From IMG/VR virus record IMGVR_UViG_3300045988_136451: a stretch of DNA of 64,000 nucleotides; one strand, 5' to 3'. Of the stretch, positions 34,546 to 51,100 are shown piece after piece (position 1 is the first letter of the stretch; the number at the start of each line of letters is the position of its first letter). A program made the translations under genes and the position numbers. The DNA is from a virus. The notes under the pieces are model-generated. The model had not been told where the DNA came from and searched no databases. It saw only the letters and a program-made list of their open reading frames with translations.

Positions 34546-34628
34546 GGCTTTCTCCTTACTTGCGGGTTGACTTTCCCTTGGTTGCAAAGTCTACCTCAAA
34601 ACGGGAAGACGTGCGACATGCGCGGTGT

Positions 34629-34644
34629 CGATTAAATAATCGAG
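34629..34644. repeat. Copy of the perfect palindrome TCGATTAAATAATCGA (intergenic, downstream of the major capsid gene)
   Basis: 7-bp arms tcgatta/taatcga around a 2-bp centre. Confidence 0.5.
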
Positions 34645-34726
34645 GCCCTTGACAGGCCGTGCCCCCCCCCATAACGGTTCCTTCGGGCGGCCAGATCAAC
34701 ATAGTCAGGCTCCCGACACCGGCGTA

Positions 34727-34758
34727 AAAAAAAGAACCCCTCTCGCGAGGGGTTCTTC
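34727..34758 (-). terminator. Strong rho-independent terminator after the major capsid gene
   Basis: Hairpin gaacccctctcgcgaggggttc, followed on the minus strand by T8. Confidence 0.6.
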
Positions 34759-34769
34759 TCTTGCTGCGG

Positions 34770-35723
34770 TTAAGCTACATTCAAGTCCATGCGGACGACA
34801 CCGTAGGAGTTGGCGATGATCTCGTTGATGAGTTCGCTGTACACCCAGCCGATGGTGAAGTTCTCGGCCTTGGGGTTGTCCACGCCGTCGAGCTGCTTCA
34901 GAATCGGCATCCAGCCAAGATACTCCGGCTCCGGAACGAGGTAAATCTTGTTCATCGGGCAGATGATCGAGGTCATGATGGAGAAGCGGCCCATCTTGGT
35001 GATCGGCTTGCCGTCCATCACGTCGTCGAGGAACTTAACGCCCGTGGTGTCGAGCTTCCACTTGTACAGGTCGTTCGCCGTCGCCGGGTTCATGATGACG
35101 CGGTTGGACTGCAAGCGGTTCTGGATGGCGATCTTCTCGGCATCGTAGAACGCGCCGGGGTTGATCTCGCCGGTGACCGTGGTCACATGCGAGGTGAGGC
35201 CCGCCCAGTCCGGGTTTTCGGAGGTGATCTTGGACACGGCAGCGTCGAGCGAGGAGAACAGGTAGCCGTCCTCCTGCTCCATGATGCGCTGCTCGGCCTC
35301 GCCCTTGGCGTAGTCCACCATGTTGATGGCGAGCTTGTAGATGTCCTCCTCGGCGATCTGGGGGAACGCCGCGATGCGGATGACCTCGTAGCGTACGCGG
35401 TTGCCCTCGTACTGCGCGATCTTCACTTCGTTGTCGTGCGGTTGCAGCTTGTAGGCCGCGCCGAACTCGGTGGTGATGTCGTAGAACAGGCCAGCGCCCT
35501 GCGGCAGCGGGTCTTCCATCAGAACGGAGCGCACGATGCCCTCGTAGCGGAGACGCATGATGATCGGGCCTACCACGCCCTGCGCGACCTTGGTGGACGC
35601 GAGACGCATGTCGTGGCGGTTGTCCGTCAGAATCTTGTTGAGCGCCGCCTGACGCTTCGCGGGGGACGACGGTTTCGCACCCATCTCCGCGACGATCTCG
35701 GCGGAAGTCTTAGGCATTGCCAT
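34770..35723 (-). CDS. Major capsid protein (HK97-fold-like)
   Basis: 317 aa. Follows the scaffold and decoration-like genes and precedes a strong terminator. Composition typical of major capsid proteins. Confidence 0.5.
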   Translation of the reverse strand: MAMPKTSAEIVAEMGAKPSSPAKRQAALNKILTDNRHDMRLASTKVAQGVVGPIIMRLRYEGIVRSVLMEDPLPQGAGLFYDITTEFGAAYKLQPHDNEVKIAQYEGNRVRYEVIRIAAFPQIAEEDIYKLAINMVDYAKGEAEQRIMEQEDGYLFSSLDAAVSKITSENPDWAGLTSHVTTVTGEINPGAFYDAEKIAIQNRLQSNRVIMNPATANDLYKWKLDTTGVKFLDDVMDGKPITKMGRFSIMTSIICPMNKIYLVPEPEYLGWMPILKQLDGVDNPKAENFTIGWVYSELINEIIANSYGVVRMDLNVA

Positions 35724-35747
35724 TTCTCTGCACCTTCCCTTCTTATC

Positions 35748-36257
35748 TTAGCGGGCGAACGTGACGATGAGGGTGGAACCCTCCATGCCGAGCAGTTCGC
35801 AGATGGTGTTCTCGGTCTTGGTCTGCGGCGCGGTTTCGAGCGTCAGCAGGCCCTTGGCGTTGGACTTCAGGTAGACGTTCTTGCCAGCCTTCAGGTTGGC
35901 GATCTCCGCCGTCCAACCGGCGCCCGTGTCGTACGCCGGGGGATAGATGGCGAACTGGCTGTCTTCGCCGCCGACCCACACGCCCATCAGGTTGAGGCCG
36001 TTTTCGCGCACCTCGTCGATGTTCATGCCGGGAGCGCAGAAGCTGTCTGCGAGGCCGTAAGGGGCCTTCGTGCCGTCGCACAGGGTCACAACGCCGTTGC
36101 CGAGATAGGACATGACGCAGCCGGGGAGGATGTCTCCGGATGCGGCGGTGAACGTCGGGTCGAGCGTCATGGACTGGTTGGTGGCTTGGGTCTTCGCGTA
36201 CAGCGGCTTGATGGTGCGGTGCTGCAAGGGGTTGTTGGCAGGAACCATGAGTGCCAT
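35748..36257 (-). CDS. Capsid decoration/cement-like protein (about 170 aa from MALMVPANNPLQHRT), paralog of 42212..43123
   Basis: RBS aaaggag. N-terminal HRTIKPLYAKTQAT is shared with 42212..43123 (HRTLKPLFTKTQAT). Confidence 0.4.
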   Translation of the reverse strand: MALMVPANNPLQHRTIKPLYAKTQATNQSMTLDPTFTAASGDILPGCVMSYLGNGVVTLCDGTKAPYGLADSFCAPGMNIDEVRENGLNLMGVWVGGEDSQFAIYPPAYDTGAGWTAEIANLKAGKNVYLKSNAKGLLTLETAPQTKTENTICELLGMEGSTLIVTFAR

Positions 36258-36280
36258 AGTAACCACTCCTTTCTTTCGTC

Positions 36281-37228
36281 TTAGTAGAGCGCACCGAGTT
36301 CGGTGCGGGTTGCGGATACGGCCTTGCTCGCGGTCTTCGCCGCGACGTGCCGGGCCGGTGCGACACCGGCGACGCGCTGGGCGCTGCCCACGGCGCGCAG
36401 CTTCTCGGTCGCCAGCTTCATGGCCTCGACGGAGTAGCGGTTGGCGTACTCCTCGCACACGGCGGCATCGCGCACCGTCGGGGCGAGGACACCTGCGGCC
36501 TTCTCGACCTTCACGAGGTCGAGCGCGGCGCAGAACGTCGCCTTGGCGGCCTCCACGGACGCGGGCGGCTTAACGCCCTCGCCGTTGTCCTTGGTGGTGC
36601 CGTCGGGGGCGATGGACTTCTCTTCGAGGTCGTCGGAAACGGCGACCTCGGTTGCCGTGTCCTTCTGCGGAAGATCGGGGGCCTCTGCGGTGTCCTTCAC
36701 GAGGTCGTCGGAGATTTCGCCGTCGGCGGTCTCCGCCTTCTTGCCGCGAGAGGCCACGCGCGCCCTGCGCGCCAGCTTCTTCTTCGACGCGCTGCGCTTG
36801 ACAGCCGCTTCCACGGCATCCTCCACAGCGTCCTCGATGATCTCGGCCAGCTCCTCCTCCGGCAGCGCTGCGGCTTCCGGTATCGCATCGACGATGGCCT
36901 GCACGGCCTCGTCGGAAACGGCATCGGCAACGTCGTCTGCCACGTCCTCCTCCTCGTCATCCACGATGCGCTCGATCTCCTCGGCGTGCTCGTCCTGCGC
37001 GATCTTGTAGGCACGGCGCTTCAGCTTGCGGGCGAAACGCTTTGCCTCCTTGTCGTCGTCGGTCACGTCCTTGGTCTCGGTCTCCGTGACTTCCTTGGTC
37101 TCGTCGTAATCCTCTTGGGAAGTCTTGGCCGTGGGGCGAGCGGACTTGGGCATGGCGGATGCGTTCTTGCGCTTGGCAGCGATGGAGGCCAGCATAGACC
37201 TGCGCTGCTCTGCATTGAGCTTACCCAT
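36281..37228 (-). CDS. Scaffolding protein (about 316 aa from MGKLNAEQRRS)
   Basis: Highly acidic Ala/Glu/Asp/Lys-rich helical sequence immediately upstream of the decoration-like and major capsid genes. RBS gaaaggagcg. Confidence 0.5.
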   Translation of the reverse strand: MGKLNAEQRRSMLASIAAKRKNASAMPKSARPTAKTSQEDYDETKEVTETETKDVTDDDKEAKRFARKLKRRAYKIAQDEHAEEIERIVDDEEEDVADDVADAVSDEAVQAIVDAIPEAAALPEEELAEIIEDAVEDAVEAAVKRSASKKKLARRARVASRGKKAETADGEISDDLVKDTAEAPDLPQKDTATEVAVSDDLEEKSIAPDGTTKDNGEGVKPPASVEAAKATFCAALDLVKVEKAAGVLAPTVRDAAVCEEYANRYSVEAMKLATEKLRAVGSAQRVAGVAPARHVAAKTASKAVSATRTELGALY

Positions 37229-37263
37229 GTAACGCTCCTTTCGTGAAACTAGTGTCTCCTGAA

Positions 37264-37282
37264 CGTGCACGCATGGTGCACG
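37264..37282 (-). promoter_or_regulatory. 7-bp inverted repeat cgtgcac-N5-gtgcacg in the scaffold/capsid operon leader
   Basis: Lies between a hairpin (37322..37345) and the scaffold RBS. Confidence 0.3.
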
Positions 37283-37408
37283 GCTCCATTTTGACACATA
37301 CAGAAAATCGCGCAACATAGAAAGCGCCCCTCCGAAGAGGGGCGCTGCCGGTCTACCACTGGCCGTTCGGCTTATCAGGCTCGTTTCAACCCACGCCCTC
37401 GCGGGCGA

Positions 37409-37657
37409 CTAATCGTAGAAGTACAGTATGCTGCTGTCGTCGGTCACCATCGACGGGCTTACGCCGCCCCTATCGACGAACGGGTCGAGCACGGGCGTTG
37501 TGAACACCGCGTCGCCCTTCACGAAGTAATGCTCGCCGTCGGCGTAGAACGTGTCGTCCCACCTCGTCGATTCGAGCGCGCGGACGAACGCGTTGTCCGC
37601 CGGGGTGCTCCTGTCCCAAGCCTCGCGCAGGAAGTTGTAAAGTTCGAGGTCTGTCAT
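37409..37657 (-). CDS. Small hypothetical protein (about 83 aa from MTDLELYNF)
   Basis: ORF with plausible RBS. Confidence 0.3.
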   Translation of the reverse strand: MTDLELYNFLREAWDRSTPADNAFVRALESTRWDDTFYADGEHYFVKGDAVFTTPVLDPFVDRGGVSPSMVTDDSSILYFYD

Positions 37658-37670
37658 CGCAAGCCCCTTC

Positions 37671-40517
37671 CTACGCACCCAATGCCGCCTTGGAGCCGGT
37701 GCGCCTGCCGACCTCCTCGGTGACGGCGCTCTTCGCGCCCTCCAACGTGTCCTCGTCGCCCTCGGCCATCTTCTCGCCGGACGCGCCGCCGCTCGTCATG
37801 TCGATCAGCTCCCAGTGGTACTTTCCGGGCGTGGAGTAGTCGTAATCGACCTCCATCTCGTACGGGTGCTCGAACTTGGCCCACACGCCGTCCTGCTCCT
37901 CCCAGCCGTCGTCGGCGGTCTTCGCGGAGGCGGTGCGGCCCAGAGCGTCGTCGATGGCGGCCTGCGCGCTCGGGAAGTACCCTTGGCGCGGATAGCCCTT
38001 CACTCCCACGTCTTCGGTGACCCAGTACCAGTTGTAGGTTCCGTCGGCCTCGACTTCGGCGTTCACGATCTTGCCGTCGCCCGTGAAGCGCCACGGGCTT
38101 CCGAGAGCGCCGCCGCCCATGGTCTCGAACTTCGTCCAGCCGTCGGGCGCGGGCGTTGAGCGCCCGGTGTCGTGCCCGTCGCTCGCCGCCGTCTTGGCGG
38201 GGAGGCGCTGGGCGTTCTGCGCCAGCCACTCGTCCGCGAGCCTCGCGCAGTACTCCATGGCAGGCTCGATCATGCAGAAGCCGTCCTCCGGGTTGTCGTA
38301 CTTCGCCAGCAGCTGGTCGTACGGCATGCTTTCGACCTCGGCGTAGGGCAGGCCGTCGATTGAGACGGTCTTGACGCGGGCGATCTCCAAGCTCGGCTCG
38401 TACGCGCCGTCCAGCGTTCCGTCGTAATAGGCGTAGCAGCCCTTCGCGTCGTAGTAGAGGTTTCCGGGAAGGTTCGTCCAGCCAGCCCACGACACGTTGA
38501 CGGTGGAGCCATCGCTTCCGACGTACTTGTACCAGTAGTCTTCGCCCGCATGCTCCCATCCGCCCATCTGCGCGGTCTTTCCGCCGACGAGATGCAATCC
38601 TTCCGCCCTGTCGGAAAGCCAGTCGTGGGCATCGTACGTGGTGTCGAAGTACTCGACATCTTCGCCATCGGAGGCTTGCCAGCAATCGTACTGGTCGTTC
38701 CACTCTATGGCATATCCGTCATAAGTGTACTTGGTGGTGCCGTCAGGCCCCGCGCCCGTCTGCCATGAATCGAGCGACGGAAGCGATGCGGTCTTCGATG
38801 CCGTGGTGACGCGCACGGTCTTGGGAGGCGCTGCGGAAACGACCTCGTTGTACGTCATCTTCTCGAACCGCTCCGCCTGACGCAGGGCGTAGTCCATGTT
38901 CGGCATCATGCCGAACTCGTGCACCTGACCCTTGTCGGAGATGACGGTGAGCTGCGGCTTGGAGCCGATCTGCTGCTGGACGACACCGATGGTCGCCCTC
39001 TTGTCCTTCGTCTGCCCTTCGTAGAAGGCGTAGAACGGCAGCTCCTCGTCATGGTAGCTAATCTCCGGGGCGAGGCCGCCGCTGGCCGTCTTGCGCGGCG
39101 CACGCCTCGCCTCCCTCATTATCCTCTCGATCTCGCTTTTCGCATCTTCCTCATAATCGTCCTCGCCCTCTGCGAGAACGTATCCATAGGCATCCTCGAC
39201 GAACCAAACCCCGTCTTCCGACAGAACCGCGCGGGTTCCGTTGTCGCCGGTCGCCTTCCACCCGTTATATCCGTTGTCCTTCCACACGACATCAGCCGTC
39301 TTGCCGCGCGACGCGCGTTTTGCAGCGCCGACGAAAGACCGGACGGAAACGTCGATGTCCTTCCCGTCGTTGTATTCCTTCTCGAAGGAAACCGTGTATT
39401 CGTCCCAAACGGAGAAGTCGTCGAAAGGCGCTTCCCTGCCGGAGACCATCTGGGATATTTTGCGCGTCATCTCGCCGTCCAGCTCAACGTCGCTCCGCAT
39501 GTGCACGTTGATGCCGTCAAACACCTGCCCGTAATTGAACTCGGACGACACCTTCCTCGATGCCGTGCGGCGCGCGGAGCGCTTGCGCCCTGCGGAGCGG
39601 GCCGCCCTGTTCTCCGCGCTCTTCTTCTCCATGTCGTCGTCCTTTCCATCGGTCTCCCGCTCGACCTCTCCGATGCCTTCGTTGAACTCGTCCTCCTCGG
39701 ACGGGTCGAGGTCGATGAGCAGCTTGTGAAGCTCTCCGGCGTGCTCCTTCTCCTCGTCGCGTATGTCCTCCAAGCCCTTGCGCACGGGGTCGCCCTCGGG
39801 CAGGAGGTCGATGTAGGCGCTGTACATCAGGATAGCGTCGTTCTCCGCCTTCATGTTGTCGCGGATGGCGCGCTTCTTCAGCTCCTCCTCCGAAAGCTCC
39901 TCGGGGTCAACCGGCATCTGCTGCGCGGTCTTCCCCTCCTTCCATTCGCCCTCGATGCCGTCGGCTTCGAGCTTCGCCACGACGGCATCGTACAGCTCGC
40001 CGCCGAGCGCGTCTTGGACGATCTGCCAGTAGCGGTTGTCGTGCTCCTCCATGGCGGTGCCGTGGTCGTATCCGGCCAAGTCCCCCGCCACGAGCCAGTC
40101 AACGACGGCCTGAACCGTGCGGTCGTCCGGCATGGACGCGCTCTTGGGCATCCTGCCGCTCCCTGACACCTCTTCTGTGTCCCTGCCGTACTCCGGCAGC
40201 GTTTTGAACTCGACGCGCCCCACATCGGCTCCTGTTCCCTCGGAGGCGGCGTTGCGCCCCATGCACAGGGGCAGCTTCCCGCTGCCCTCGATCAATTTGC
40301 AGAACTCGCGCGCCTCGTCCTCGTCCGCGCACACCTTGAACCGCGCCGCCTCGTTCGGCTTGTCCTTCTCGAAGACACCGGCCCACACGGTGTCGCCGGT
40401 CTTGTCTATCGAGTAGTTGAACGCCTCGCCGCACGATGTCAGGACGCGGGGCATCTCCTCTTTCCATCGCAGGGCCGTCTTCGCGCCCCGCTCGATTATT
40501 TTATCGGGCTTGCCCAT
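37671..40517 (-). CDS. Giant acidic protein, 948 aa, with a ferritin/rubrerythrin-like ExxH motif; candidate virion-internal or anti-defence protein
   Basis: RBS gaaggag. Very Asp/Glu-rich. ENDAILMYSAYIDLLP...EDIRDEEKEHAGELHKLL resembles a ferritin-like diiron motif. Confidence 0.35.
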   Translation of the reverse strand: MGKPDKIIERGAKTALRWKEEMPRVLTSCGEAFNYSIDKTGDTVWAGVFEKDKPNEAARFKVCADEDEAREFCKLIEGSGKLPLCMGRNAASEGTGADVGRVEFKTLPEYGRDTEEVSGSGRMPKSASMPDDRTVQAVVDWLVAGDLAGYDHGTAMEEHDNRYWQIVQDALGGELYDAVVAKLEADGIEGEWKEGKTAQQMPVDPEELSEEELKKRAIRDNMKAENDAILMYSAYIDLLPEGDPVRKGLEDIRDEEKEHAGELHKLLIDLDPSEEDEFNEGIGEVERETDGKDDDMEKKSAENRAARSAGRKRSARRTASRKVSSEFNYGQVFDGINVHMRSDVELDGEMTRKISQMVSGREAPFDDFSVWDEYTVSFEKEYNDGKDIDVSVRSFVGAAKRASRGKTADVVWKDNGYNGWKATGDNGTRAVLSEDGVWFVEDAYGYVLAEGEDDYEEDAKSEIERIMREARRAPRKTASGGLAPEISYHDEELPFYAFYEGQTKDKRATIGVVQQQIGSKPQLTVISDKGQVHEFGMMPNMDYALRQAERFEKMTYNEVVSAAPPKTVRVTTASKTASLPSLDSWQTGAGPDGTTKYTYDGYAIEWNDQYDCWQASDGEDVEYFDTTYDAHDWLSDRAEGLHLVGGKTAQMGGWEHAGEDYWYKYVGSDGSTVNVSWAGWTNLPGNLYYDAKGCYAYYDGTLDGAYEPSLEIARVKTVSIDGLPYAEVESMPYDQLLAKYDNPEDGFCMIEPAMEYCARLADEWLAQNAQRLPAKTAASDGHDTGRSTPAPDGWTKFETMGGGALGSPWRFTGDGKIVNAEVEADGTYNWYWVTEDVGVKGYPRQGYFPSAQAAIDDALGRTASAKTADDGWEEQDGVWAKFEHPYEMEVDYDYSTPGKYHWELIDMTSGGASGEKMAEGDEDTLEGAKSAVTEEVGRRTGSKAALGA
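40492..40507. repeat. Copy of TCGATTATTTTATCGg (codons 4-8 of the giant acidic protein gene)
   Basis: Encodes DKIIE, as at 13384. Confidence 0.45.
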
Positions 40518-40575
40518 GCTCGCTCCTTCAAAAGTCCGAAGGGGAGGGGCCTCGCCCTCCCCTGAAAGCTGTCTC

Positions 40576-42201
40576 CTACCGGTTCCACGCCGGGTCGTAC
40601 GCGAACGGAACCTCGTACCACGGTTTGCCGTCGATCTCGTCGATGAACGTGCTCACTTGGTTCTTGAACTCGTATCCGTCGATGATCGCGGTCGTCTCCG
40701 GGGTCACGCGCAGGTACAGATCGCTGTTCCAATGGCTGATGTCGCTGTCGGGAACGCCGCTGCGCTCGATCTCCTCGAACAGGCTTGCGGTCTTCTTGGT
40801 CATGGATGCGGCCTTCCTCTTGGTTTTCCTCGCTGCCGCCATCTTACCACAAGTCTTAACTTTTGTCTTAACTTTTTCTCCGACTTTTTCCCTTACGTTC
40901 TTCTCCGCCAAAGCGACCAGCATGCGCGCGTGGATGTCGTTGCCGAGCGCGGTGCGGGAGGCGACGCGGAACGCGAAGCCGTTGTCGATGGTGTAGCCGT
41001 CGTTGATAACGATGTCGCGCCCGAAGCCCTCGTAGTCGAAGTACATCTCCTTCTCGTCGTCGCTGATGCCGTCGAAGCCAAACTCATCGACGATGCGGTA
41101 CCCCAAGTCGCGCTCGTCGTACACGTCGCTCCAATAGTCAACGTCGTCGATGTGCTCGGCGACGTATTCAAGGCTTTCGTAGTCGAGCAGCGCGTCGAGC
41201 AGATCGTCGTCGAGGTCTGCGTCCTCTATGGCCTCCACCCACTCGTTCACGCTGTATATGTCGTCGTACTCGCCGACGCTGCTGCCAAGCCCGTCGGTGT
41301 CGGAGATCATGACCTCCTCGTAGAACTCGCCGTCGGGGCCGGTCTGCGCGCGCTCGATGGCCTCCTCGATCTCGCTCTCGGAGGCTGGCAGCTTCAACCA
41401 GTCGCCGTTGGTGGGGTTGGACACCGCGCCGATGAATATCTCGCAGTCGCCGCCGAACGCCACCTTGCGCGCGGCCCATGCCCTGTAGCGCGCCTCCTTC
41501 GTCGCGAGGCGCGGCTTGCGGGACGCGTGCTTCGGCATCTTCTCGACCTCGGCCTTGTACTCCGCATAGGCCTCCTTGTCGGTCAGCTTCGCGCAGGCGA
41601 CCATGCCCACGGCGCAGCCCATGCCCGCGAGGTGGTGCAGCACCTCGTCGTTGACCTTCCTCGCCATGCGGCGCTCCGCCATGCGGGACGCAACCCATTC
41701 CGCCTTGGCGATCTCCCCTGCGGGCACGCCGTCGGGGTCTCCGTCCATGAGGTCGTCAGCCGCGTCGGTAAGCTCGTCGATGTCCTGCGCGACCCTGAAC
41801 GCGGCGCTCTCCTTCTCGTGCGCCTTCAGGTGCTCTTCCAAAGCGTCGTCGGCATCGTTCTTGGCATCCTCGATGCTGTCGGAATGCCCGCTGTCCACGG
41901 TGCGGTCGTCGGTGTCCAGCACGTCCCAGCGGTAGCGCTTCTCGCCGCCGTCGTCCCACTTGACGGTCGCCTGATAGCCGCCGTCGTGCTTGCGCCACGT
42001 GGTGTCCTTCTCGTCCGGGTTCCCCTCGTTGTCTGCCTTCCATTCAGCGGCCATCTTGCGGCCTCCTTCCATGCGCTTCAGGCGCTTCAGCTCGTCTCGC
42101 TGGTGGTCTGTCTCGTCGTAGTCGTAAGGCAGCGCGAAGTCCGTCACGCAGTCGCCGTCGCCCTCGCGAGCCTTGCGGCTCATACCCTTAACAAGCTCCA
42201 T
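40576..42201 (-). CDS. ardA: ArdA-like anti-restriction domain embedded in a 541 aa fusion protein
   Basis: Central region IFIGAVSNPTNGDWLKLP ... EKEMYFDYEGFGRDIVINDGYTIDNGFAFRV matches the ArdA family signature (compare Tn916 ArdA VYIANLGKYNEGELVGAW ... YIDYQAYGRDLDLSGTFISTNHGIFEI). Acidic N-terminal and basic C-terminal extensions. RBS taaggagag. Confidence 0.55.
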   Translation of the reverse strand: MELVKGMSRKAREGDGDCVTDFALPYDYDETDHQRDELKRLKRMEGGRKMAAEWKADNEGNPDEKDTTWRKHDGGYQATVKWDDGGEKRYRWDVLDTDDRTVDSGHSDSIEDAKNDADDALEEHLKAHEKESAAFRVAQDIDELTDAADDLMDGDPDGVPAGEIAKAEWVASRMAERRMARKVNDEVLHHLAGMGCAVGMVACAKLTDKEAYAEYKAEVEKMPKHASRKPRLATKEARYRAWAARKVAFGGDCEIFIGAVSNPTNGDWLKLPASESEIEEAIERAQTGPDGEFYEEVMISDTDGLGSSVGEYDDIYSVNEWVEAIEDADLDDDLLDALLDYESLEYVAEHIDDVDYWSDVYDERDLGYRIVDEFGFDGISDDEKEMYFDYEGFGRDIVINDGYTIDNGFAFRVASRTALGNDIHARMLVALAEKNVREKVGEKVKTKVKTCGKMAAARKTKRKAASMTKKTASLFEEIERSGVPDSDISHWNSDLYLRVTPETTAIIDGYEFKNQVSTFIDEIDGKPWYEVPFAYDPAWNR

Positions 42202-42211
42202 CTTTCTCTCC

Positions 42212-43123
42212 TTACTCGCCGAAGACGCAGGCGGTAAAATCGAACGTGTATTCCGTGCCGTCCGTCTTGCTCTCGGCATCCTCGGCGCTCGCGTACAGCG
42301 TCGCCGTGAACTCCTTCACATCCTTCTGAATGGCGGCGACGAGGTTGATGGCTCCCGGCCCGTCGCCCGTCTGGCCGAACACAAGCGTCTTCTCGCCGCT
42401 GCCGAGCGTCTGGCGGACGAACGCGGAGCCGTCAGCCGCCTTCATCTCGAACGCGGCGTAGTAGCCCGTTCTGTCCTCCTCTGCGGCGAAGAACTCCGTC
42501 CAGTCGGGAACGTGGTTGACGGTTCCACCGAAGACGACGTTCGTGCCTTCGACTCTCGCGGTGAGGCCGCTCGTCAGCTCGCCTAGGTTCTTACCGGCGA
42601 AGTTCGTTCCGGCGAAGTCCGTCTTCCCTATCGTCAGCGCCGCTGGCTGCGGCGGCTCCGCGACGAGGGCTTCCGGCGCTTCTGAAACGGTTATCTTCGC
42701 CTGACCGACCGACATCAGCATGCACACCGGGTTCCCGTCGCCGACCGTCAAGCGACCGTTGGCATCCGATTCGAGCAGCACGCGGCCTCCCGACTTCAAC
42801 GTCGCCTCCGCCGCCTCCCAGTCAGCATCCTTGTCGATGACGGAGCGCGACACGTCCGCCATCGCCCCGCCTCCGAAGACGAGAACGCCAGCGCTGGGAA
42901 CCTCCCAGACATTGTGCGTCCTGTACGTCGAGAACAGCCCCAAGGGGCGCTCCGCCCCGGTTGACGGCCTCACCCCGTCAGGCCCCATGCAGGCGACCAT
43001 GCCCGGCATGATGTCGTGCCTCGAAGGGTCAACGGGCCAATCTTGGAACGTCGCCTGCGTCTTCGTGAACAATGGTTTCAGGGTTCGATGCTCCTGCGTT
43101 GCGAAATTTGACACTATAGCCAT
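42212..43123 (-). CDS. Capsid-associated protein, 303 aa, paralogous to the decoration-like protein 35748..36257, with a C-terminal extension
   Basis: Shared N-terminal HRTLKPLFTKTQAT and central W.AE.A.LK.G..V.L.S.A.G.LT blocks. Confidence 0.35.
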   Translation of the reverse strand: MAIVSNFATQEHRTLKPLFTKTQATFQDWPVDPSRHDIMPGMVACMGPDGVRPSTGAERPLGLFSTYRTHNVWEVPSAGVLVFGGGAMADVSRSVIDKDADWEAAEATLKSGGRVLLESDANGRLTVGDGNPVCMLMSVGQAKITVSEAPEALVAEPPQPAALTIGKTDFAGTNFAGKNLGELTSGLTARVEGTNVVFGGTVNHVPDWTEFFAAEEDRTGYYAAFEMKAADGSAFVRQTLGSGEKTLVFGQTGDGPGAINLVAAIQKDVKEFTATLYASAEDAESKTDGTEYTFDFTACVFGE

Positions 43124-46100
43124 CTGCTTTCCTTTCCGATAACTCCGCCGCGCATCAATTCGTCAAGCGATGCGGAGTAAGAGGCGATCTTACCTCCGCT
43201 CGCAAGATCGTAGTCTATGCCCTCTGCGTACCCGGCATCGGCGAGCGCCGCGAGCACGGTGCCCTGATCGTCCGGAACGTCGAACAGGCGGGCCGCGATG
43301 CGGGCATCGTCGGTGTCCTCCGCGTACTCCTCCTCGGCATCTTCGGTCACCTCCGCGTCAGGCTCCTCCGCATCGTCCAAGTCCTTGCGCAGCTCCTTGT
43401 TCTCCTGCGCCTCCTCCGTGTCGATGTCGCCGAAGCCCTCGGCGTACTCGACGTACTCGCACACGTCGCAGTAGATGCCGTCGAAGTCGGGGCTTCCGCA
43501 TATCGGGCACACGCGGTCGGAGTTCTGCATGTCCACCTCTTCGGGGATGCGCAGCTTGTTCACCATGTTGTCGGCCAGCTTGTAGTGACCGGCGATCTCT
43601 TGGAGGGCATCGGCGTAGAACTCCTCGTCGGCATCGGCGGCCTCCTCGACGGCGCTCCACACCTCTGCGGCAAGCTCGTCGTAGCTGTCGAAGGACAGGC
43701 CGAGGCTGTCGTACTCCTCGATGAAGTCGTTGGCGAAGCCGCTTGCGTCGTCTGCGGAGCCTTCCTTGCCCTCGCCGAACGGCTCGATGCCGAACCTCCT
43801 GCACGCGGCGTTCACCTTGTCGATGACGGCCTGCCTGTCATCGGACGGTATCTCGACCTTGTTCCCGCGATAGCCCTTGCCGAGCGCGGCCTTCGCCGCA
43901 GCGGCATGGTCTTTGTCCGAGATGTCCAGCTTCCAATCGCTCGGATTGTCGGTCGGAGTGTACGCATAGTCCGACTTGCTCTTCTCCGCCGCCGTCACCC
44001 GAAGCAGCGTCCGCGCCTCGTCGTATACTTCATCGTTCATGTCGGTGTGCCTCCATTGCATCGTCCCGAACATATGGTCGGCAAGCGTCCCGTCTGCTCC
44101 GCTGCCCACGTAGCTCTCCACCACGTCGTTCACTTTCTTGTCGAAGATGCAGTCGTAGTTCTCCGTGTTCTCGAAGTCAGACCACCTCGCATAGCCGTAC
44201 AGCTCGCCGCCGTACATCTGCCTGTTGATGCCGTCGAGGTACCAGTTGCACCCGCCAACGCCGTAGCCCCAATGGTCGGAGCCGCGAACAACGCCGTCAG
44301 GGAAGTACCAGTACTCGGAGCCTGATTCGCTCGTGTAGTCGGGAGCGCCCTGCGGCCTGTCCTCCACCTCCGCGAAGTCCGCCTCGGTCTCTATGTAGAA
44401 GTTGTCGGGGCCGAACTCCCTTTCCTTCGCGGCGACCTTGGCGGTCTTCGCCTCGGCCTCCAACGCCTGCACGGTGGCCGTCGGGTCTGCCGGGTCGTAC
44501 ACCCAGCTCTCCTCGAAGAACGCTATGCCGTTGCATATCTCGAACGCGAGAACGCCGTCGAACTCGCGCCCCTTCTGCTTGATGTGGTTGCAGAACTGGG
44601 CGGGCTGCTCTGCCACGTTCCCGCACACCGAGCACGTCGTGGTCTCGCAATTATGAACGGCATACCCCTCGGCAATATAACTATGATCTTCCTCAACTTC
44701 AAAGTTATACACCATCCCCGTGTACGGAAGAACCCTTATGCGGTCTATGCGCCTCCAAGTGCCTTGTTCGTCAACATAGCACATCATCATTTTCTTCTGT
44801 TCTTCGGAGCGATCTCCATAAGAGACGTAACGTGTGTGTTTGGCAATATCGGATATTCTCTCGGAAGACCTAGCGATTGGTTTGGACATCTTGATGCCAA
44901 GTTGAGTGCATATTGAAAATATCTGATATGCAAGGTCTTTTGAAACGGTGGAATATGCGACCCTGCGATCATCAATGTAATGTCCGTCTCCATTAAGATA
45001 CGCTTCGACAAGATCGCCAAGACACTCATCATCCCAGCGCATTGCTTCGTCGCTTATTCTTTTCCCATGGGAATACTTCCCACCATGCTCTAACATCATA
45101 TTTGCAAGTTCCGGTGAATTGCACCTTATCGTAGCAGCTCCACGCTTGATATACGGCCCAACCGCCTTATATCCGAGTTCAGAGCAAAGCGCCATGACTT
45201 CATCGTGATAATCAGTCTCGCTATCGCAAAACGTCCACTCGACAAACGCTGGTGCGCCAACACCAATGTTCAGCTTTTTGTCATATCCGAAGTTTCCCTC
45301 TGCGAGATAGTATCCAAGGAGCCTTGCGAACGCGCGATTCCCGCCACGCGATGTGCGAACGGGCTTCGGGTCGAGAACGTAATCTCCAACCTCCAAGTCA
45401 CTCGCAATGACCCATCCTTCAAAATCGGGCTGGTATCCATGGCCGTCAACGCCGTTCTTCGCGGCCTCGCGCACATGCGCCGCAAGGCTTCTATGGCTCT
45501 TGAACGAGCGCCCGCAAATGCAAGAATGCTCTGCATTGTCGCCATCATGAGCTATCCTGCTTTCACGTATGGTTCGCATCGCGTCGTTCTTCATTCGACG
45601 CACCCAGACGGGATGCTCGTCGGTAAGAACCATCGGACGTTTGCTTCCATAAGATCGCACCTCATACACGATTCCGGAATGCAAGCTCGCCATCGTGTCG
45701 GCAACCCTTCGCACGTTCCCAAGATGCGTTATAACCTCATCGCCGACCGCAACGTCTTCGATGTTTTTGACGGTGCCGTTTGACATAGTTATATGCGTTC
45801 CGGGAACAAAGCAGTTGAGGCCCATGGAAACGGTGTCGATGTCGCCGCTGCGGATGAGCGCGCACAGCCTCGGGAACGTAACCTCGTCCATCTCCATCAG
45901 AATCTCTATCCAACGGTCTTCCGGGTCTTCGTCGTGGTACACCGCGTCGATGATGTAGCCGCGCGCCCTGTCGAGGTTCGTGTTCGAGTGGTTCACGTAC
46001 ACCGGCTTGCCGACGAACGTGCGGTACGCGGTCTTCAGCTCCTCGTGCGGCAGCATGTCGAAGTTCAGGTTCGGAACGTCTGCGGTGCATGCGCGGACGG

Positions 46101-46227
46101 AGACGTACAGGAACCCGTCGCCGCGATCATCGTACTCGAACGAGCCGAGGGCCTTGCGCGCGGCGACGCGCCCGGTCGTCCCGAAGCTCGTTCCGATTAT
46201 GGAGCAGTTGGAGAACTTAACGAACAT
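43114..46227 (-). CDS. Head morphogenesis protein (possible prohead protease / minor capsid protein) with LAGLIDADG intein, zinc ribbon and long acidic C-terminus
   Basis: Hint block CFVPGTHITMSNGTVKNIEDVAVGDEVITHLG. LAGLIDADG motifs LLGYYLAEGNF and LVEAYLNGDGHY. C-terminal ...EGYAVHN followed by Cys. CPICGSPDFDGIYCDVC zinc ribbon. Confidence 0.45.
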   Translation of the reverse strand: MFVKFSNCSIIGTSFGTTGRVAARKALGSFEYDDRGDGFLYVSVRACTADVPNLNFDMLPHEELKTAYRTFVGKPVYVNHSNTNLDRARGYIIDAVYHDEDPEDRWIEILMEMDEVTFPRLCALIRSGDIDTVSMGLNCFVPGTHITMSNGTVKNIEDVAVGDEVITHLGNVRRVADTMASLHSGIVYEVRSYGSKRPMVLTDEHPVWVRRMKNDAMRTIRESRIAHDGDNAEHSCICGRSFKSHRSLAAHVREAAKNGVDGHGYQPDFEGWVIASDLEVGDYVLDPKPVRTSRGGNRAFARLLGYYLAEGNFGYDKKLNIGVGAPAFVEWTFCDSETDYHDEVMALCSELGYKAVGPYIKRGAATIRCNSPELANMMLEHGGKYSHGKRISDEAMRWDDECLGDLVEAYLNGDGHYIDDRRVAYSTVSKDLAYQIFSICTQLGIKMSKPIARSSERISDIAKHTRYVSYGDRSEEQKKMMMCYVDEQGTWRRIDRIRVLPYTGMVYNFEVEEDHSYIAEGYAVHNCETTTCSVCGNVAEQPAQFCNHIKQKGREFDGVLAFEICNGIAFFEESWVYDPADPTATVQALEAEAKTAKVAAKEREFGPDNFYIETEADFAEVEDRPQGAPDYTSESGSEYWYFPDGVVRGSDHWGYGVGGCNWYLDGINRQMYGGELYGYARWSDFENTENYDCIFDKKVNDVVESYVGSGADGTLADHMFGTMQWRHTDMNDEVYDEARTLLRVTAAEKSKSDYAYTPTDNPSDWKLDISDKDHAAAAKAALGKGYRGNKVEIPSDDRQAVIDKVNAACRRFGIEPFGEGKEGSADDASGFANDFIEEYDSLGLSFDSYDELAAEVWSAVEEAADADEEFYADALQEIAGHYKLADNMVNKLRIPEEVDMQNSDRVCPICGSPDFDGIYCDVCEYVEYAEGFGDIDTEEAQENKELRKDLDDAEEPDAEVTEDAEEEYAEDTDDARIAARLFDVPDDQGTVLAALADAGYAEGIDYDLASGGKIASYSASLDELMRGGVIGKESRWL
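44650..45813 (-). mobile_element. Intein (about 388 aa) within 43114..46227
   Basis: Boundaries MGLN|C ... AVHN|C, hand-counted. Lower GC than the flanks. Confidence 0.5.
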
Positions 46228-46813
46228 GCTTGCCCTTCTTCCTCGCCTTATACGCCATGTAGCAGTTCACGATCAAAGCGGCCTCCATGAGCGCCACCAG
46301 AGCCATTTTGACGACGAGAAGCGCGTTCGGGCCCGGCAGGCCTATGAACGCGCTGTCGGCCAGCGTCACGACCGCGAGAACGCCCATTATGAGCGCTATG
46401 AGCATCTTGTCGTTCGCATAGTAGCGGATTGCCATGACGGCGAAGCCCGCGAAGACGACGAACGCCGACGGCATGACGACCGAGTGCGGCGCTCGCGTGA
46501 AGAAGCCGCCGATGACCGACGACATGAAGACGAACACGACGAGCAGCAGCATGTCTATCGAACGCCAGCTCTTGTCGGTCGCCCCCGCGAACATGAAGAC
46601 ACCCGCCATGCCGTAGGCTGCGAGCGAGAAGAAGCGGGCGAACATGTCGTGCTCGCCCGCCGATGCGATGATCGAGGCGGAGAGCGCCATCGAGGCGAGC
46701 GCTGCGGCCATGTAGGGCATGCTCTTGTCCCCGCACGTCCTGACGCTCAACGCGGACGCGATGACGAATATCGGAAAAGTCGCTCCGAAGATCGAGAGGA
46801 CAGCGGCGTTCAT
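46217..46813 (-). CDS. Polytopic membrane protein (about 198 aa from MNAAVLSIFG)
   Basis: About 5-6 hydrophobic helices. ATGA overlap with the upstream membrane protein gene. Confidence 0.4.
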   Translation of the reverse strand: MNAAVLSIFGATFPIFVIASALSVRTCGDKSMPYMAAALASMALSASIIASAGEHDMFARFFSLAAYGMAGVFMFAGATDKSWRSIDMLLLVVFVFMSSVIGGFFTRAPHSVVMPSAFVVFAGFAVMAIRYYANDKMLIALIMGVLAVVTLADSAFIGLPGPNALLVVKMALVALMEAALIVNCYMAYKARKKGKHVR

Positions 46814-47178
46814 CGCTTTTCGCCTCCCTTCGAGGAGCTTGCTTCGTCCTTCGAGCCTCCGAACTTCGATTCGAGCGAGTTTATGATCTGCTCCAATATC
46901 ATGGGGGCTATGATGGCCGAAGAGAAGGCCGTCCAGATCGACTGATCGACTATCACGCCGACCGCGCCGCCCATTATCAGCGACGCTACGAAGCCGAGAT
47001 GGACGTACACGCCTCCGTCGTCCTTGCGCTCGATGCGCAGCGGAAGCTCCAAGCAGCCGTCGTTCACGCAGATGTCGCGGACGAACGCACCGCAAGCACC
47101 GGCGAGGAACAGGAACAAAGCCTGCTCGAAGCTGGTTATCTCGCTCATGTGCACGAGCGATGCGAAAAGTTCGTCCAC
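46810..47178 (-). CDS. Small membrane protein, 122 aa, two predicted TM helices, charged C-terminus
   Basis: Hydrophobic segments ALFLFLAGACGAFV and LGFVASLIMGGAVGVIV. Confidence 0.4.
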   Translation of the reverse strand: MDELFASLVHMSEITSFEQALFLFLAGACGAFVRDICVNDGCLELPLRIERKDDGGVYVHLGFVASLIMGGAVGVIVDQSIWTAFSSAIIAPMILEQIINSLESKFGGSKDEASSSKGGEKR

Positions 47179-47193
47179 GCTACGCTCCCTTCT

Positions 47194-48180
47194 TTAGTAA
47201 AGGGAGGCATCTTCTCCCTTGTAGCGGTCTCTGTTGCGAGCCAACTGGCCGGTGCTCTCCTCTTGGAGTTCCTTCTGCTCCTGCTGGCTGAATATCCTTG
47301 TGGCGCTTTTATTGTATCCGCTGTTGCTTTTCGCCGCCACTGGCAACGCGACGCGCCGAGCGCCCGCAGACACGCACATGACACCGCCGTACTCGTGGAC
47401 GCGCATCGCCTCGCGGATGCCGCGCTGCATCGTCTCGGGGGCCGATTCGTCGAGGAACGCGACGGCCTCGCGCCTCTCGCCCTCGTTGGTCGAGTACAGG
47501 CGCGCGACCATGGCGTTGAACACCTCGTCCTCGAAGCAGTCGGGGCACAGTTCGTGCAGCCCATCGCGCTCGCCGTATTTCCCGCAGTGCGAGCAGAAGC
47601 CCGTCTCGTTGTAAACCATGCTTGCCGTCCTATCTCCGAAGAACTCTTTCCTCGCCCTCGCGTTGCTCACCATGAGCGTCGCGAGCGCGTGGCTGCACAT
47701 CCTGCCGCCCCAGCCGCTCCTGCTGCTGTGGCCCGGAGCGCCGTCGTAGTAGCTGCCCCACTTGCAATCGCACAGGTAGCCCTGAACCCATCCGCCGTAG
47801 TTAGGCGACTTGTTCCATCCCTTGCGCGCGAGTATCACGCCGTAGGGGCCTCCGCGATAGACGGGGAAGCGCCCCGCCACCTGCGCGCTCGTGACGACGG
47901 CATCGACCTCCTCGCTGTCGTCGCGGGTGATGACAACGCCGCCCGTGGCGGCTATGGCCTCGGCCTTCGCCTTCACGTCCGCCCATGCCGCGCGCTTCTC
48001 CAACATCGACGTTTTCCGCATGTCGTCTGCCACCGCGAGCGGGCAGTGCAGCAGGCGCTCGTCGGAGCGTTCGTAGGAGCATGCGCCAAGCTCGACGCTC
48101 GCCGTCCTCTCCGACACGTCAACCCTCTGCACGCACCGCCCGCAGTCCCAGAACATGCAGTCGCATCCGCTACTCATCGC
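47194..48180 (-). CDS. SWIM zinc-finger protein (about 328 aa)
   Basis: CDCKWGSYYDGAPGHSSRSGWGGRMCSHALATL fits the SWIM CxCx(n)CxH motif. Confidence 0.45.
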   Translation of the reverse strand, partial: AMSSGCDCMFWDCGRCVQRVDVSERTASVELGACSYERSDERLLHCPLAVADDMRKTSMLEKRAAWADVKAKAEAIAATGGVVITRDDSEEVDAVVTSAQVAGRFPVYRGGPYGVILARKGWNKSPNYGGWVQGYLCDCKWGSYYDGAPGHSSRSGWGGRMCSHALATLMVSNARARKEFFGDRTASMVYNETGFCSHCGKYGERDGLHELCPDCFEDEVFNAMVARLYSTNEGERREAVAFLDESAPETMQRGIREAMRVHEYGGVMCVSAGARRVALPVAAKSNSGYNKSATRIFSQQEQKELQEESTGQLARNRDRYKGEDASLY

Positions 48181-51100
48181 CGCCGTCCTCCGCGACCAAC
48201 GGCACGCCCTGCTCCACCAGAGATGCCGTTCGCTTGCTGCGGACGCTTGCGCGGTGGTTGGCGACCACGGAGCGCTTCGTGCTCCCAACGTCCTTCATGG
48301 CGCTTCTGGCGGCCTCGTGCGGGATGTCTCCGCCCTTCGCCGCGAACGTGCCCGGAGCGTCCATGTCCTCGCGCCTCTCGTCCGACACGTCGGGTCTTGC
48401 GCCGTCTCCGGGGGCGTACTCCTCCTCGTCCACCACGTCGGTCACCGCTTCGAGCTGCGATACCGCCTCCTCTTCGGGCGACTTCCCGAACGGGCCGTCC
48501 TTGCCGTCGTCCTCCTTCGGGGCTATCTTCTTCAGAAGCTCCTGCTCTTCCAACGGCGCTATGCCGTCCTTCATGAACTTCACCGTGTCGGGAGGAACGG
48601 GAACGCCCTTCTCGACGCACGCGCGGAAGATCGCGGCGTGCTCCTCCGCGCGCTGCACGGCATCGTGTATGGCATCCTGCGATGCCTGCTCCGCCGTCGC
48701 ACGGTAGTCGATGTCGGTTCCCATGAAGAACGCCTGACGGGCGATTGGCACGCCCTGCTTCTGCAACTGCATGAGGAAGTCGCGCGTCTTCTCCGTCGTG
48801 TTGAAGTTGATCGTCTCCATGCGCAGCTCCGGATAGAGCAGCTTGGGAACCTCCTTGATGACGTAGCCGCCCTCTCCGTCGTTGACCGATTCGTCCCACA
48901 CCTCGCGCCACTCGGTCTTGTCGATCTTGACCCCGCCTATGATGTCGTAGTCGTAGATGCCGTTCGCCTCGGCGACGAACGCCGCGCGGCGGTTGTACAG
49001 CTCGCACAGGCACTTCTGGTAGCTGCGGAGCATCTGGCTCGCCAGCTCGAACTCCATGGCCGACGTTGCGTACGGGCCGCTCGCAGGCTTCAAGATCGAC
49101 GATGAGAGGCCCCACGCCATGAACAGGCGGTCGTCGTACATGTCGATGTCGTTCTTGAAGTTCGCCATCTTGTCGCCGCGTATGACCTCCTGCACGTTCA
49201 CAAACTGGTTTGTGACCAAGGCTCGGAAGTCGGACGAAAGCGCCTCGTCGAGACGCGTTCGGAAGGTAGCTATGGCGTTCGGAGACGGGATGTAGGGGCT
49301 TCCGTCGGCAAGGTTGCCTCCGAGCGAGAACAAGAGGAGCGGCGCGTACATGCGGTCTGCCGTCGCGAGCATGGCCGACTGAAGGCGCTCCTCCAACCGC
49401 AGGGTGTTCCAAGCGCGCAGGGCGACCGGCGTTCCGTGAAGGTCTCGCACGCTGTCCTTGTTCGCGAGGTGGACGCATCGGTCTGGCGATATGAGGATGT
49501 CCTTTCCGGTCTTCACCAGCTCGGCGAACTCCGGGTTCTCCTCCTCGAAGATGCGCCCTGCAACGTCCATGCTGTTGACGATGCGCTTCATGTCCTCGTC
49601 GGGAACGAACTTCAAGATGTTCTCCGATGAGAACGGCACCCTTATTATCTCCATCTGGCGCGGGTCTAAAAGCTCCTCGCCCGTCCATATGCCCAAGCTG
49701 TCGTCCCACACGCCGTTGGCGAACACCTCTCCGTACTGCCAGTACTCGCGGCCAACGTCGATCAGGAAGTTCTCGTAGTCCAAGTCCTCGAAGAAAATCT
49801 GCTCGAAGAAGTCTTTCACGTCCTTGTTCTTGCATTCGAGGTGCGCGCCTGCGGTGGGGTACCTCGCGTACACCTCCAAGCAGTTGTGAGACGCGAAGCC
49901 GTCGGCTAGATAGCTATGGTCTTCATCGACCTCCAAGTTGTACACGGCCCCCTCGAACCTCTCGACGGACACCGACTTCACCGCGAAGTGCATGTAGTCG
50001 CCGCTTAGGAAGCCGAGGGAGACGCGCGAGTACGGGCGCTTCTCGCGCTCGTGCCGTATACCATTGTCGTCGCGAAAAGAGCATGCCGATGCCCCGCTGT
50101 ACCTCACAGCGCCGAGCGACGTTTGCACGATGGACGCTTTCTCATTGTCCGCGACGAACCTCTCGAACATGCAGTTCCGAGGCCATTTCACGCACACCTC
50201 GTAACCGCACCTGATCGAAATAGCGGCAAGGCCGTTCACAAGATCGCGGGAGACGCTGTTCATCACGATCTCGTTCTTCCCGTTGCAGCCGTCTCCACGG
50301 AAGAACCCGACAAGCAGCTGACGCTGCTTCTCGATTGGAAGCTCCTGAACCCATAGCGGTATGCGCTTCGAGTGAGCGCCGCACAAAAACTCATCGCGCA
50401 GCCATTGGGCGAGCGGCGCGGAGTTCACATCGACGACCCACATGTTCCTGCGCCCGTCTCTGCGAGCCTTCGCCTCGATGCCGAGGCATTCGCGGCATAT
50501 CCTCTTAACGTCATCAACGTACTCGACCTCATGCGCGCCGAAGCAGATGCTCGTCCTGTTGCCCGATGCCGCTCCGTCAGAGAGATGGTATCCCACGAAC
50601 CTGAAGAAGTCTGCATTCGCCTTGATCTCCAACCGCATCGAACGCTTCGACTTCGTTGGGGGGACGACCTTGCCCGTCTTCGTCTTGTACGAACCCTGAA
50701 CCCATTCGACATCGCGCTTCGCGACGATACGCTCGACATCCTCGACGCTTTTGCCGACCGGCATCACAAGATAGTCTCCGATGCGAACCTCGCTCGCCGA
50801 AACCCACTTGTACTCGCCCTCCGGCAGCGCTCCGTCAAGGTACGTCGTGCCGCCCGTGCGTCTGAACACGTACAGGTTGTGGTCTTCGGTGCAGCGCAGC
50901 TCCGAATCGCTCTGATGCACCTTGAACGAATACATGTCCCCGTCATACCCGAACGCCATTGTTTCGAGAACCTTGCGGTAGCGCCCAGCATGCGTCTTTA
51001 CCTCGTCTCCGACCGCCACGTCCTCGATGGGCACGAGAGACCCTTCGACATCGACGAGCGTCCCGGCGGGGTGGCACGCGCGCATGACGGGGTTGGTCTT

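Follow-up and report, generated by a model that had tools for sequence, protein, structure and literature searches.

The window analysed here is the whole 64,000-nucleotide stretch of viral DNA in IMG/VR record IMGVR_UViG_3300045988_136451. Our subject is one of its genes, whose 541-amino-acid (aa) product carries an ArdA anti-restriction domain between long flanking regions and is encoded inside the head-morphogenesis module. A preliminary description of the DNA had placed a 541-aa open reading frame (ORF) at 40576-42201, and the ORF list bears this out, with minus as the coding strand; a plus-strand translation of the same interval was ruled out, as no gene is present there. Counted from its first ATG, the minus-strand ORF occupies 40576..42279 and comprises 567 aa. 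The start at 42279 was rejected, as it overlaps the upstream gene and as alignment with Eggerthella phage LE2-3 favours the ATG at 42201 (MELVKG...), which has a GGAGAG Shine-Dalgarno sequence ahead of it.

Genomic context of the ArdA fusion

Over positions 34000-47000 the window shares 99.4% identity with Eggerthella phage LE2-3 (MW679026.1), a record of 111,961 bp from a phage isolated in Cork with Eggerthella lenta DSM 2243 as host, and the source of the window is a virulent E. lenta myovirus of about 112 kb. High GC and very acidic proteins had at first pointed to a haloarchaeal virus, a reading that the 99.4% match to LE2-3 rules out. Literature searches turned up no usable description of LE2-3; a paper on phiKL11 was set aside, since it deals with another phage, of 59 ORFs. 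The LE2-3 counterpart of the ArdA fusion, LE23_73, is 99.1% identical to the window protein and is already annotated 'antirestriction protein' in GenBank MW679026.1, so that the ArdA call itself is not new. The LE2-3 protein has 621 aa against 541 in the window, where an in-frame 240-bp deletion after codon 8 removes one 80-aa beta-rich module; the site of this indel (window 42175-42180 versus L001 at about 20180-20420) falls exactly between two S-R-x-A motifs. Metagenomes often contain the 541/542-aa form, P0005 being one example, on 17 contigs of up to 119 kb. Whole-module differences also occur elsewhere in the ArdA-fusion family, with a tandem duplication of ArdA domains 1-2 in P0001 and an extra C-terminal module in P0018.

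All genes of the head region lie on the minus strand and are listed here in transcription order. The terminase large subunit is followed by a 786-aa protein, the portal, small genes, the head-maturation protease, a 303-aa paralogue of the capsid cement protein and the ArdA fusion, after which come a 948-aa modular protein, an 89-aa ORF, a hairpin, a scaffold-like protein, the cement protein and the major capsid protein, with the tail sheath farther on. The profile matches of these neighbours, and in the case of the scaffold-like protein its position and composition, bear out the earlier placement of the gene among capsid-associated genes (a decoration-like paralogue, a scaffold and the major capsid protein). 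The ArdA fusion is tightly, indeed translationally, coupled to these late structural genes, with a gap of 10 nucleotides that is provided with a Shine-Dalgarno sequence. No promoter was found near it in a scan for sigma-70-like sites, a class from which Coriobacteriia promoters may differ.

A complete ArdA domain

The protein holds a complete, highly acidic ArdA DNA mimic, which by homology is predicted to inhibit type I restriction-modification (R-M) enzymes. The ArdA identity first proposed is borne out by profile, sequence, fold, charge and key residues alike. The hidden Markov model search with PF07275 that had been suggested as a check gave a match of 82.7 bits (cut-off 27; E=5.5e-23), with aa 266-410 covering positions 16-154 of the 155 in the profile, and PHROG 2059 ('anti-restriction protein') matched at 6.7e-12. 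A phmmer search against PDB sequences aligned aa 266-410 to residues 21-160 of Tn916 Orf18 ArdA (2w82_A; E=6.7e-7), and matched the same Orf18 sequence in the EcoR124I complexes 7bto and 7btr. The strand EIFIGAV (aa 254-260), which aligns with the first strand of ArdA, lies ahead of the Pfam envelope; the domain therefore covers about aa 249-415 and is as large as an ArdA that stands alone. Its size is thus about 166 aa (249-415), and not the central 190 aa first described. The signature Y-x-D-Y-x-x-(F/Y)-G-R-D, reported at the outset, is present as YFDYEGFGRD at aa 387-396 (41014-41043).

A full-length AlphaFold2 (AF2) model from a 26-sequence alignment was discarded, as its mean predicted local distance difference test score (pLDDT) was 49.6 and its Foldseek matches to the PDB were noise in which ArdA was not recovered; it was replaced by a model from a 132-sequence alignment, with pLDDT of 77-96 over the ArdA domain. 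In a Foldseek search of the PDB with this model the only significant matches were 2w82_A/B (E=3e-6, 171 columns, target-normalised TM 0.71), the next match having E>1, and identity to Orf18 was about 27%. The charge is extreme, with 49 aspartates and glutamates against 8 lysines and arginines in the 166 residues of aa 251-416 (net -41, isoelectric point 4.05). Fold and interface residues F91, Y137, I138 and F161 of Orf18 were singled out by McMahon et al. 2009 (PMC2731889), and in the phmmer alignment these essential residues have as equivalents Y341, Y387, F388 and, for the F161 of the VF motif, F411. The acidic Orf18 residues D109, D112, D115, E122 and E123 correspond to D359, D362, D365, D372 and E373. 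The dimer-interface tyrosine of domain 3 is thus among the conserved residues, and the fusion partners on either side might hinder homodimerisation unless they are removed.

These residues also bear on which defence system is the target. A DNA mimic of this kind, delivered or expressed, could act mainly on something other than type I R-M, such as the BREX-like, type III or IV, or helicase-nuclease systems of Coriobacteriia. Type II and IV enzymes as well as genes for helicase-nucleases figure in the varied defence islands of E. lenta, the ArdA-fusion family is diverged (the 27% or so identity to Orf18), and the T7 DNA mimic Ocr is reported to inhibit BREX as well (cited in PMC12373910). All tested ArdAs, however, inhibit type I enzymes (PMC2731889; PMC12373910), and the key ArdA residues are conserved in the fusion, so that a different main target seems to us very doubtful.

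Conservation of position and comparison with other phage ArdAs

A word-indexed search with the ArdA domain alone returned 2 proteins, and a query with the alignment reached a wider family of 3,247 matches. Two diverged relatives of the fusion, at about 40-47% identity to the window protein, are found in a contig of 40% GC (L002; 426 aa) and one of 57% GC (L004; 391 aa). In the first, the order protease, cement-like protein, ArdA, 710-aa ferritin-like protein, scaffold, cement and major capsid protein is the order of the window; in the second, two ORFs lie between protease and ArdA, which is followed by scaffold, cement and major capsid protein without a protein of the 948-aa type. The order is kept in both; far from being a local accident, the placement in the head module is genuine and has been conserved during the evolution of three diverged lineages.

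ArdA genes of other phages are arranged differently. The nearest outgroup proteins (P0033 and P0034, of about 260 aa) are encoded among small genes and next to DNA methylases, and the ArdAs of Paenibacillus phage SV21 and Microcystis phage MaeS (166-175 aa) head arrays of small early-type genes. All of the outgroup and cultured-phage ArdAs compared are genes for 166-263 aa among small genes, and the best 120 of the 3,247 matches in the wider search were of 168-280 aa. To judge from these sequences, an ArdA in a head operon is an unusual placement, other phage ArdAs being small and stand-alone and lying in early-type regions. The closest outgroup ArdAs (L006 10001-10783; L007/L008, about 260 aa) have a duplicated C-terminal (dimer-interface) domain; they adjoin DNA cytosine methylases, one of which bears an intein.

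Regions flanking the ArdA domain

In the family alignment the N-terminal leader follows a pattern, M-x-L-x4-S-(R/K)-x-x-A, that is kept in most family members, P0032 being an exception. The acidic region after it includes a small module of three strands and a helix (aa 63-115; 41857-42015) whose sequence is similar to that of two modules in the neighbouring 948-aa protein (E=6e-5 and 0.006 by blastp against the window's own proteins). The helical region that comes next is conserved in all relatives except P0032, and its profile, in an exhaustive search of 1.84 billion representative proteins, found 3 clusters, all of them ArdA fusions of the same family. The idea that it is a general capsid-targeting module with swappable cargo was ruled out on this ground, since it is found only in ArdA fusions. 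Downstream of ArdA, the basic linker has the motifs R-T-A (416-418), K-M-A, R-K-A and K-T-A (470-472) in inter-domain segments of low pLDDT, and the C-terminal acidic domain is restricted to the Eggerthella-phage subgroup of the alignment. The C-terminal extension had been described as basic, which holds for its first part (54 aa, net +12) and not for the whole, as an acidic domain of about 70 aa (net -9) ends the protein. Pfam and PHROG searches at permissive E-values with the N-terminal, helical and C-terminal segments, and with the extra LE2-3 module, gave nothing credible.

A basic-x-Ala motif shared by the protease-to-scaffold genes

Several of the linkers in the ArdA fusion contain a short motif that recurs in its neighbours. 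Over all plausible ORFs of the window, KTA occurs 12 times in the protease-to-scaffold genes (2,986 aa) and 3 times elsewhere (16,832 aa; Fisher 3.9e-08), and [KR]TA[SQDA] occurs 11 times in the former and once in the latter (Fisher 9e-9), an enrichment of K/R-T-A-(S/Q/D/A) in the genes at 36281-46227 of about 60-fold; the pattern was picked post hoc, after the data had been seen, and the p-values are therefore optimistic. The K-T-A instances mostly follow basic residues and are positioned at module boundaries and in low-confidence linkers. Nine or ten of them (8 K-T-A and 2 R-T-A) mark module boundaries in the 948-aa protein; the protease has K-T-A directly past its protease domain (aa 594; EAEAKTAKVAAKE), the scaffold-like protein has K-T-A-S close to its C-terminus, and the portal has a single K-T-A close to its own. 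In the ArdA fusion, R416-T-A lies just past ArdA and K470-T-A-S opens the C-terminal domain, and the looser form K/R-x-A is found as S-R-K-A11 at the end of the leader and as R245-K-V-A248 directly before ArdA. With R412-V-A414-S forming the last ArdA strand, R-K-V-A248 and R-V-A414-S-R-T-A418 bracket the ArdA domain.

Strict K-T-A is not conserved in the 40%-GC relative, where the aligned sites have it only as K-x-A. Aligned pairs between the 948-aa protein and its 710-aa homologue (45% identity) are KSAS/KKAN, KTAS/KKAD, KTAS/KEAQ, KTAD/KHAQ and KTAL/KIAL, and the large module indels between the two start and stop at K-x-A sites.

A comparable arrangement is seen in mycobacteriophage cluster C (Bixzunavirus), with whose capsid proteins the major capsid protein of the window is 38% identical. 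The Bixzunavirus head block (L005, Mycobacterium phage EasyJones 3188-11346) consists of gp99, gp100, cement and major capsid protein. Both gp99 (1,337 aa, with a LysM domain) and gp100 (1,369 aa, with an N-terminal protease domain homologous to that of the window and a Phage_L5_gp82 domain) are annotated as hypothetical proteins; gp100 has five [KR]TA[AG] motifs, including K-T-A-G directly past the protease domain, and gp99 has three. These sequence features suggest that gp99 and gp100 may be head-internal polyproteins like those of the window. From the distribution of the motif we infer that basic-x-Ala may be the recognition site of an uncharacterised lineage of prohead proteases, and that the long proteins would be polyproteins dismantled in the prohead. 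A literature search for protease sites or cleavage data in Bxz1 found nothing usable.

Linker motifs of a protease type would also fit degradation during maturation, as expected if the DNA mimic had been co-opted for head assembly, either as an acidic internal or scaffold-like filler or as a decoy keeping DNA-binding surfaces of the portal, terminase or capsid interior free until packaging; the ArdA would then be degraded or expelled once packaging was done. The neighbours of the gene do include those for scaffold and protease, and in its acidic modular build the protein is like the scaffold-like and 948-aa proteins. We nevertheless regard such a structural role, for which we know of no precedent in ArdA, as very improbable, as the protein shows the same conservation of fold and dimerisation residues and of the acidic pattern that bona fide ArdAs do, and as the 57%-GC relative keeps its ArdA though it is without the 948-aa protein.

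Other features of the head region

The window has two Phage_cement_3 paralogues, the upstream one (303 aa) with an extra C-terminal domain of about 150 aa. The ferritin/rubrerythrin-like segment of the 948-aa protein is a four-helix segment at aa 220-290 that scores just under the Pfam threshold (21.7 bits) and is followed by small Trp-rich modules with K-T-A linkers between them; its homologue in L002 has a weak DUF2383 match. From its sequence, this protein may be a ferritin-like cargo carried inside the capsid, which would recall the cargo of encapsulins. The hairpin splits the block of protease, ArdA, 948-aa and 89-aa genes from that of scaffold, cement and major capsid protein, and may act as an attenuator by which the proportion of cargo to shell proteins is set. 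The scaffold-like protein has no Pfam or PHROG family match.

Four genes in the 64 kb bear inteins. The terminase carries one of the LAGLIDADG type, of about 334 aa (about aa 580-913), which is absent from the otherwise 97-99% identical LE2-3 terminase (661 aa), a presence/absence polymorphism between near-identical phages. Intein domains (Hint, intein-splicing or LAGLIDADG) are also present in the portal, in a PhoH-like ATPase (31016-32635, minus strand) and in the head-maturation protease, whose gene (43114..46227) has Hint/intein matches. In the LE2-3 record the protease bears the label 'tRNA synthetase', apparently a mis-annotation.

Table 1. Features of the ArdA-fusion gene and of the surrounding head region, with positions in the 64,000-nucleotide window
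Feature	Position	Strand	Basis or remark
ArdA-fusion gene, 541 aa + stop	40576..42201	minus	ORF list; LE2-3 LE23_73 alignment for the start
Stop codon of upstream cement-like gene, then GGAGAG ribosome-binding site; 10-nt intergenic gap	42202..42214	minus	LE2-3 alignment
N-terminal leader, aa 1-11 (MELVKGMSRKA), with a basic-x-A motif at its end	42169..42201	minus	Family alignment
Acidic N-terminal region, aa 12-130, net -15	41812..42168	minus	Charge
Family-specific helical region, aa 131-250, ending R245-K-V-A248 ahead of ArdA	41452..41811	minus	Family alignment
Complete three-domain ArdA, aa ~249-415	40954..41451	minus	Pfam, phmmer, AF2, Foldseek, charge
Basic helical linker, aa 417-470, 54 aa, net +12, pI 10.7	40792..40953	minus	Charge, pLDDT
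C-terminal ~70-aa acidic beta-rich domain, aa 471-541, net -9	40579..40791	minus	Family alignment
Terminase large subunit, 995 aa	55126-58113	minus	
Portal	48170-51391	minus	Pfam/PHROG matches
Head-maturation protease; N-terminal ~215 aa intein-interrupted, long acidic C-terminal extension	43114..46227	minus	phrog_18299 1.5e-19, phrog_2774 1.4e-41
303-aa paralogue of capsid cement/decoration protein	42212..43123	minus	PF23968 Phage_cement_3, 36.9 bits
948-aa modular protein	37671..40517	minus	Ferritin/rubrerythrin-like segment and string of small modules
GC-rich hairpin, 10-bp stem, T-rich tail	37323..37346	minus	Terminator-like scan; between 89-aa and scaffold-like genes
Acidic scaffold-like protein, 315 aa from MGKLN	36281..37228	minus	Position and composition; function inferred
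Capsid cement protein, 169 aa	35748..36257	minus	PF23968, 113.9 bits
Major capsid protein	34770..35723	minus	phrog_2522, 6.5e-61

Proposed capsid delivery of the ArdA domain

Placement of the gene in the head module suggests, without proving it, that the ArdA protein is taken up by the capsid and injected together with the DNA. In the model that we propose, the fusion would be made late, alongside the head proteins, and incorporated into the prohead, with the leader, the family-specific helical region and the modules common to the 948-aa neighbour as candidate targeting elements. The prohead protease would then cut the fusion at basic-x-Ala linkers (K-T-A-S/Q/D in the phage of the window), and cuts after A248 and A414 would release an ArdA of about 166 aa, of canonical size and competent to dimerise. 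This fragment would be retained in the head and leave with the DNA at the next infection, so that a pre-made inhibitor could neutralise the type I R-M enzymes of the host ahead of any phage gene expression. By analogy, the leader with its basic-x-Ala motif could act as a capsid-targeting sequence of the T4 internal-protein type. We would give this sequence of events, in which the protein is made late, cut in the prohead and ejected with the DNA, an even chance of being correct.

Capsid delivery gains circumstantial support from the shared linker motif, the shared small modules and the contrast with early stand-alone ArdAs. The LysM domain of Bixzunavirus gp99 would be useful only if delivered to the cell envelope, and we count it on the same side. 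The LE2-3 annotation includes no methyltransferase and no other anti-R-M gene, and E. lenta commonly carries R-M systems, which vary from strain to strain. ArdA measures 70 x 20 Å per monomer, with a chord of 140 Å for the dimer (PMC2731889), and as this rod is DNA-like in size, its transit through the tail channel is conceivable, though this is speculation.

The main competitor is a conventional cytoplasmic ArdA whose gene has by chance come to reside in the head operon. Its expression, driven by an internal or early promoter that escaped recognition or else taking place late, would yield a soluble, full-length, unpackaged protein acting against type I R-M or by blocking modification. In its favour are the intact ArdA domain, the early expression on which every characterised ArdA and Ocr protein relies (PMC2731889; PMC5512222), a promoter scan confined to sigma-70-like sites and the presumptive nature of packaging. 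Against a cytoplasmic role stand a position and a tight coupling that are kept in three diverged lineages, an architecture and linker motif held in common with neighbours of head-internal type, and the small size and early-type location of other phage ArdAs. Furthermore, an inhibitor whose synthesis is confined to the late phase gives the incoming genome no protection if the particle does not bring it along, and the functional logic in this way favours packaging. We therefore consider a purely cytoplasmic ArdA rather unlikely.

Several considerations count against packaging and processing. A domain of net charge -41 beside densely packed DNA is electrostatically awkward, and early expression could still take place from an unconventional promoter, of a kind outside the sigma-70 scan. 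The most distant family member, P0032, is without both leader and helical region in the family alignment, and the helical region is never seen with other cargo, which leaves a general capsid-targeting role apparently without support. The motif is post hoc and, outside the Eggerthella-phage lineage, degenerate (K-x-A), and loosening its definition to K-x-A weakens its statistical weight. A Pfam scan of the intein-free protease domain gave no family match and hence no known specificity, and the literature searched yielded neither virion proteomics nor N-terminal sequences or transcription timing, whether for LE2-3 or for a relative.

Relation to known systems

Like Tn916 Orf18 (2W82) and ColIb-P9 ArdA, the protein studied here has a homologous three-domain fold and extreme acidity, together with the Y-x-D-Y-x-x-F/Y-G-R-D dimer-interface region and the phenylalanine of the VF motif, and a block of type I R-M would be expected from these features. 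Known ArdAs are products of leading-region or early genes of about 165 aa, in contrast to the present one, which is an internal domain of a 541-aa protein, with some 250 aa before it and 125 aa after it, encoded in a head-morphogenesis operon.

The Dar proteins of phage P1 shield co-injected DNA and do not work by DNA mimicry. DarA, DarB, Hdf, Ulx and DdrA/B make up an anti-type I system carried pre-made in the capsid and tied to head morphogenesis, with DarA being cut by the head protease (summarised in PMC5512222). The ArdA fusion would share with them a capsid-carried anti-type I function, its packaging being presumed here. No homology to DarA, DarB or Hdf was seen, the whole protein and its segments matching only ArdA in Pfam and PHROG. 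In T4, the small inhibitors Ip1, Ip2 and Ip3 have an N-terminal capsid-targeting sequence, are cut by the prohead protease and are injected with the DNA (PMC12373910). They differ from the ArdA fusion in having type IV (GmrSD) targets, cleavage at L/I-x-E and an unrelated sequence, and the targeting leader and cleavage of the fusion are hypothetical. The corresponding motif of phiKZ-like prohead proteases is S/A/G-x-E. Head-internal proteins of phiKZ-like phages such as SPN3US are described in PMC10052503 and PMC7411985 as processed by the prohead protease at a short motif and ejected. These too differ, in protease motif, in lineage and in being without ArdA. The proposed delivery would thus resemble that of P1 Dar, T4 Ip1-3 and phiKZ-like ejection proteins by analogy, with homology to none of them.

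Iyer et al. 2017 described ArdA in multidomain polyvalent proteins predicted to enter with DNA, in which ArdA fusions come mainly from Firmicutes conjugative elements and are joined with ArdC-N and enzymatic domains (PMC5512222). Polyvalent proteins are defined there by at least two conflict-related effector domains, typically with ArdC-N, MuF, methylase or helicase modules (PMC5512222). The present protein, in which no effector domain other than ArdA can be recognised, falls outside this definition; its partner modules are lineage-specific. T7 Ocr is likewise a phage-encoded DNA mimic directed against type I R-M, but it has an unrelated fold, is the product of the first gene to enter and be expressed, and is not virion-associated. 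Capsid-delivered ArdA fusions had been thought uncharacterised, and we found no published report of ArdA in a phage head module or in virions; the novelty is nonetheless tempered by the LE2-3 annotation and by the polyvalent proteins of Iyer et al. 2017.

Implications for Eggerthella phages and their relatives

Early expression is the textbook route of anti-restriction by ArdA and Ocr, as protein injection is that of the P1 Dar and T4 internal proteins. A packaged ArdA, if true, would join an inhibitor of the early-expression type with a protein-injection strategy, and would explain how a phage with neither a methyltransferase nor an early anti-R-M gene crosses strain barriers in E. lenta, a gut species targeted for phage-based microbiome editing. 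Should the protein prove to be an ordinary cytoplasmic ArdA, what remained of the finding would be one member of a well-known family with an uncommon location and an uncommon fusion. More broadly, we would suggest, tentatively and with somewhat less than even confidence, that a class of myoviruses comprising the LE2-3-like phages, their lower-GC relatives and, by extension, cluster C packs bead-on-a-string polyproteins that are cut at basic-x-Ala, one of the beads being ArdA. If this is so, the ArdA would be the first encapsidated DNA-mimic anti-restriction protein, and the ferritin-like domain would be another cargo. Once verified, the protease motif would provide a sequence rule by which capsid cargo could be spotted, both here and in the large mycobacteriophage cluster C, and a possible handle for loading foreign proteins into such capsids.

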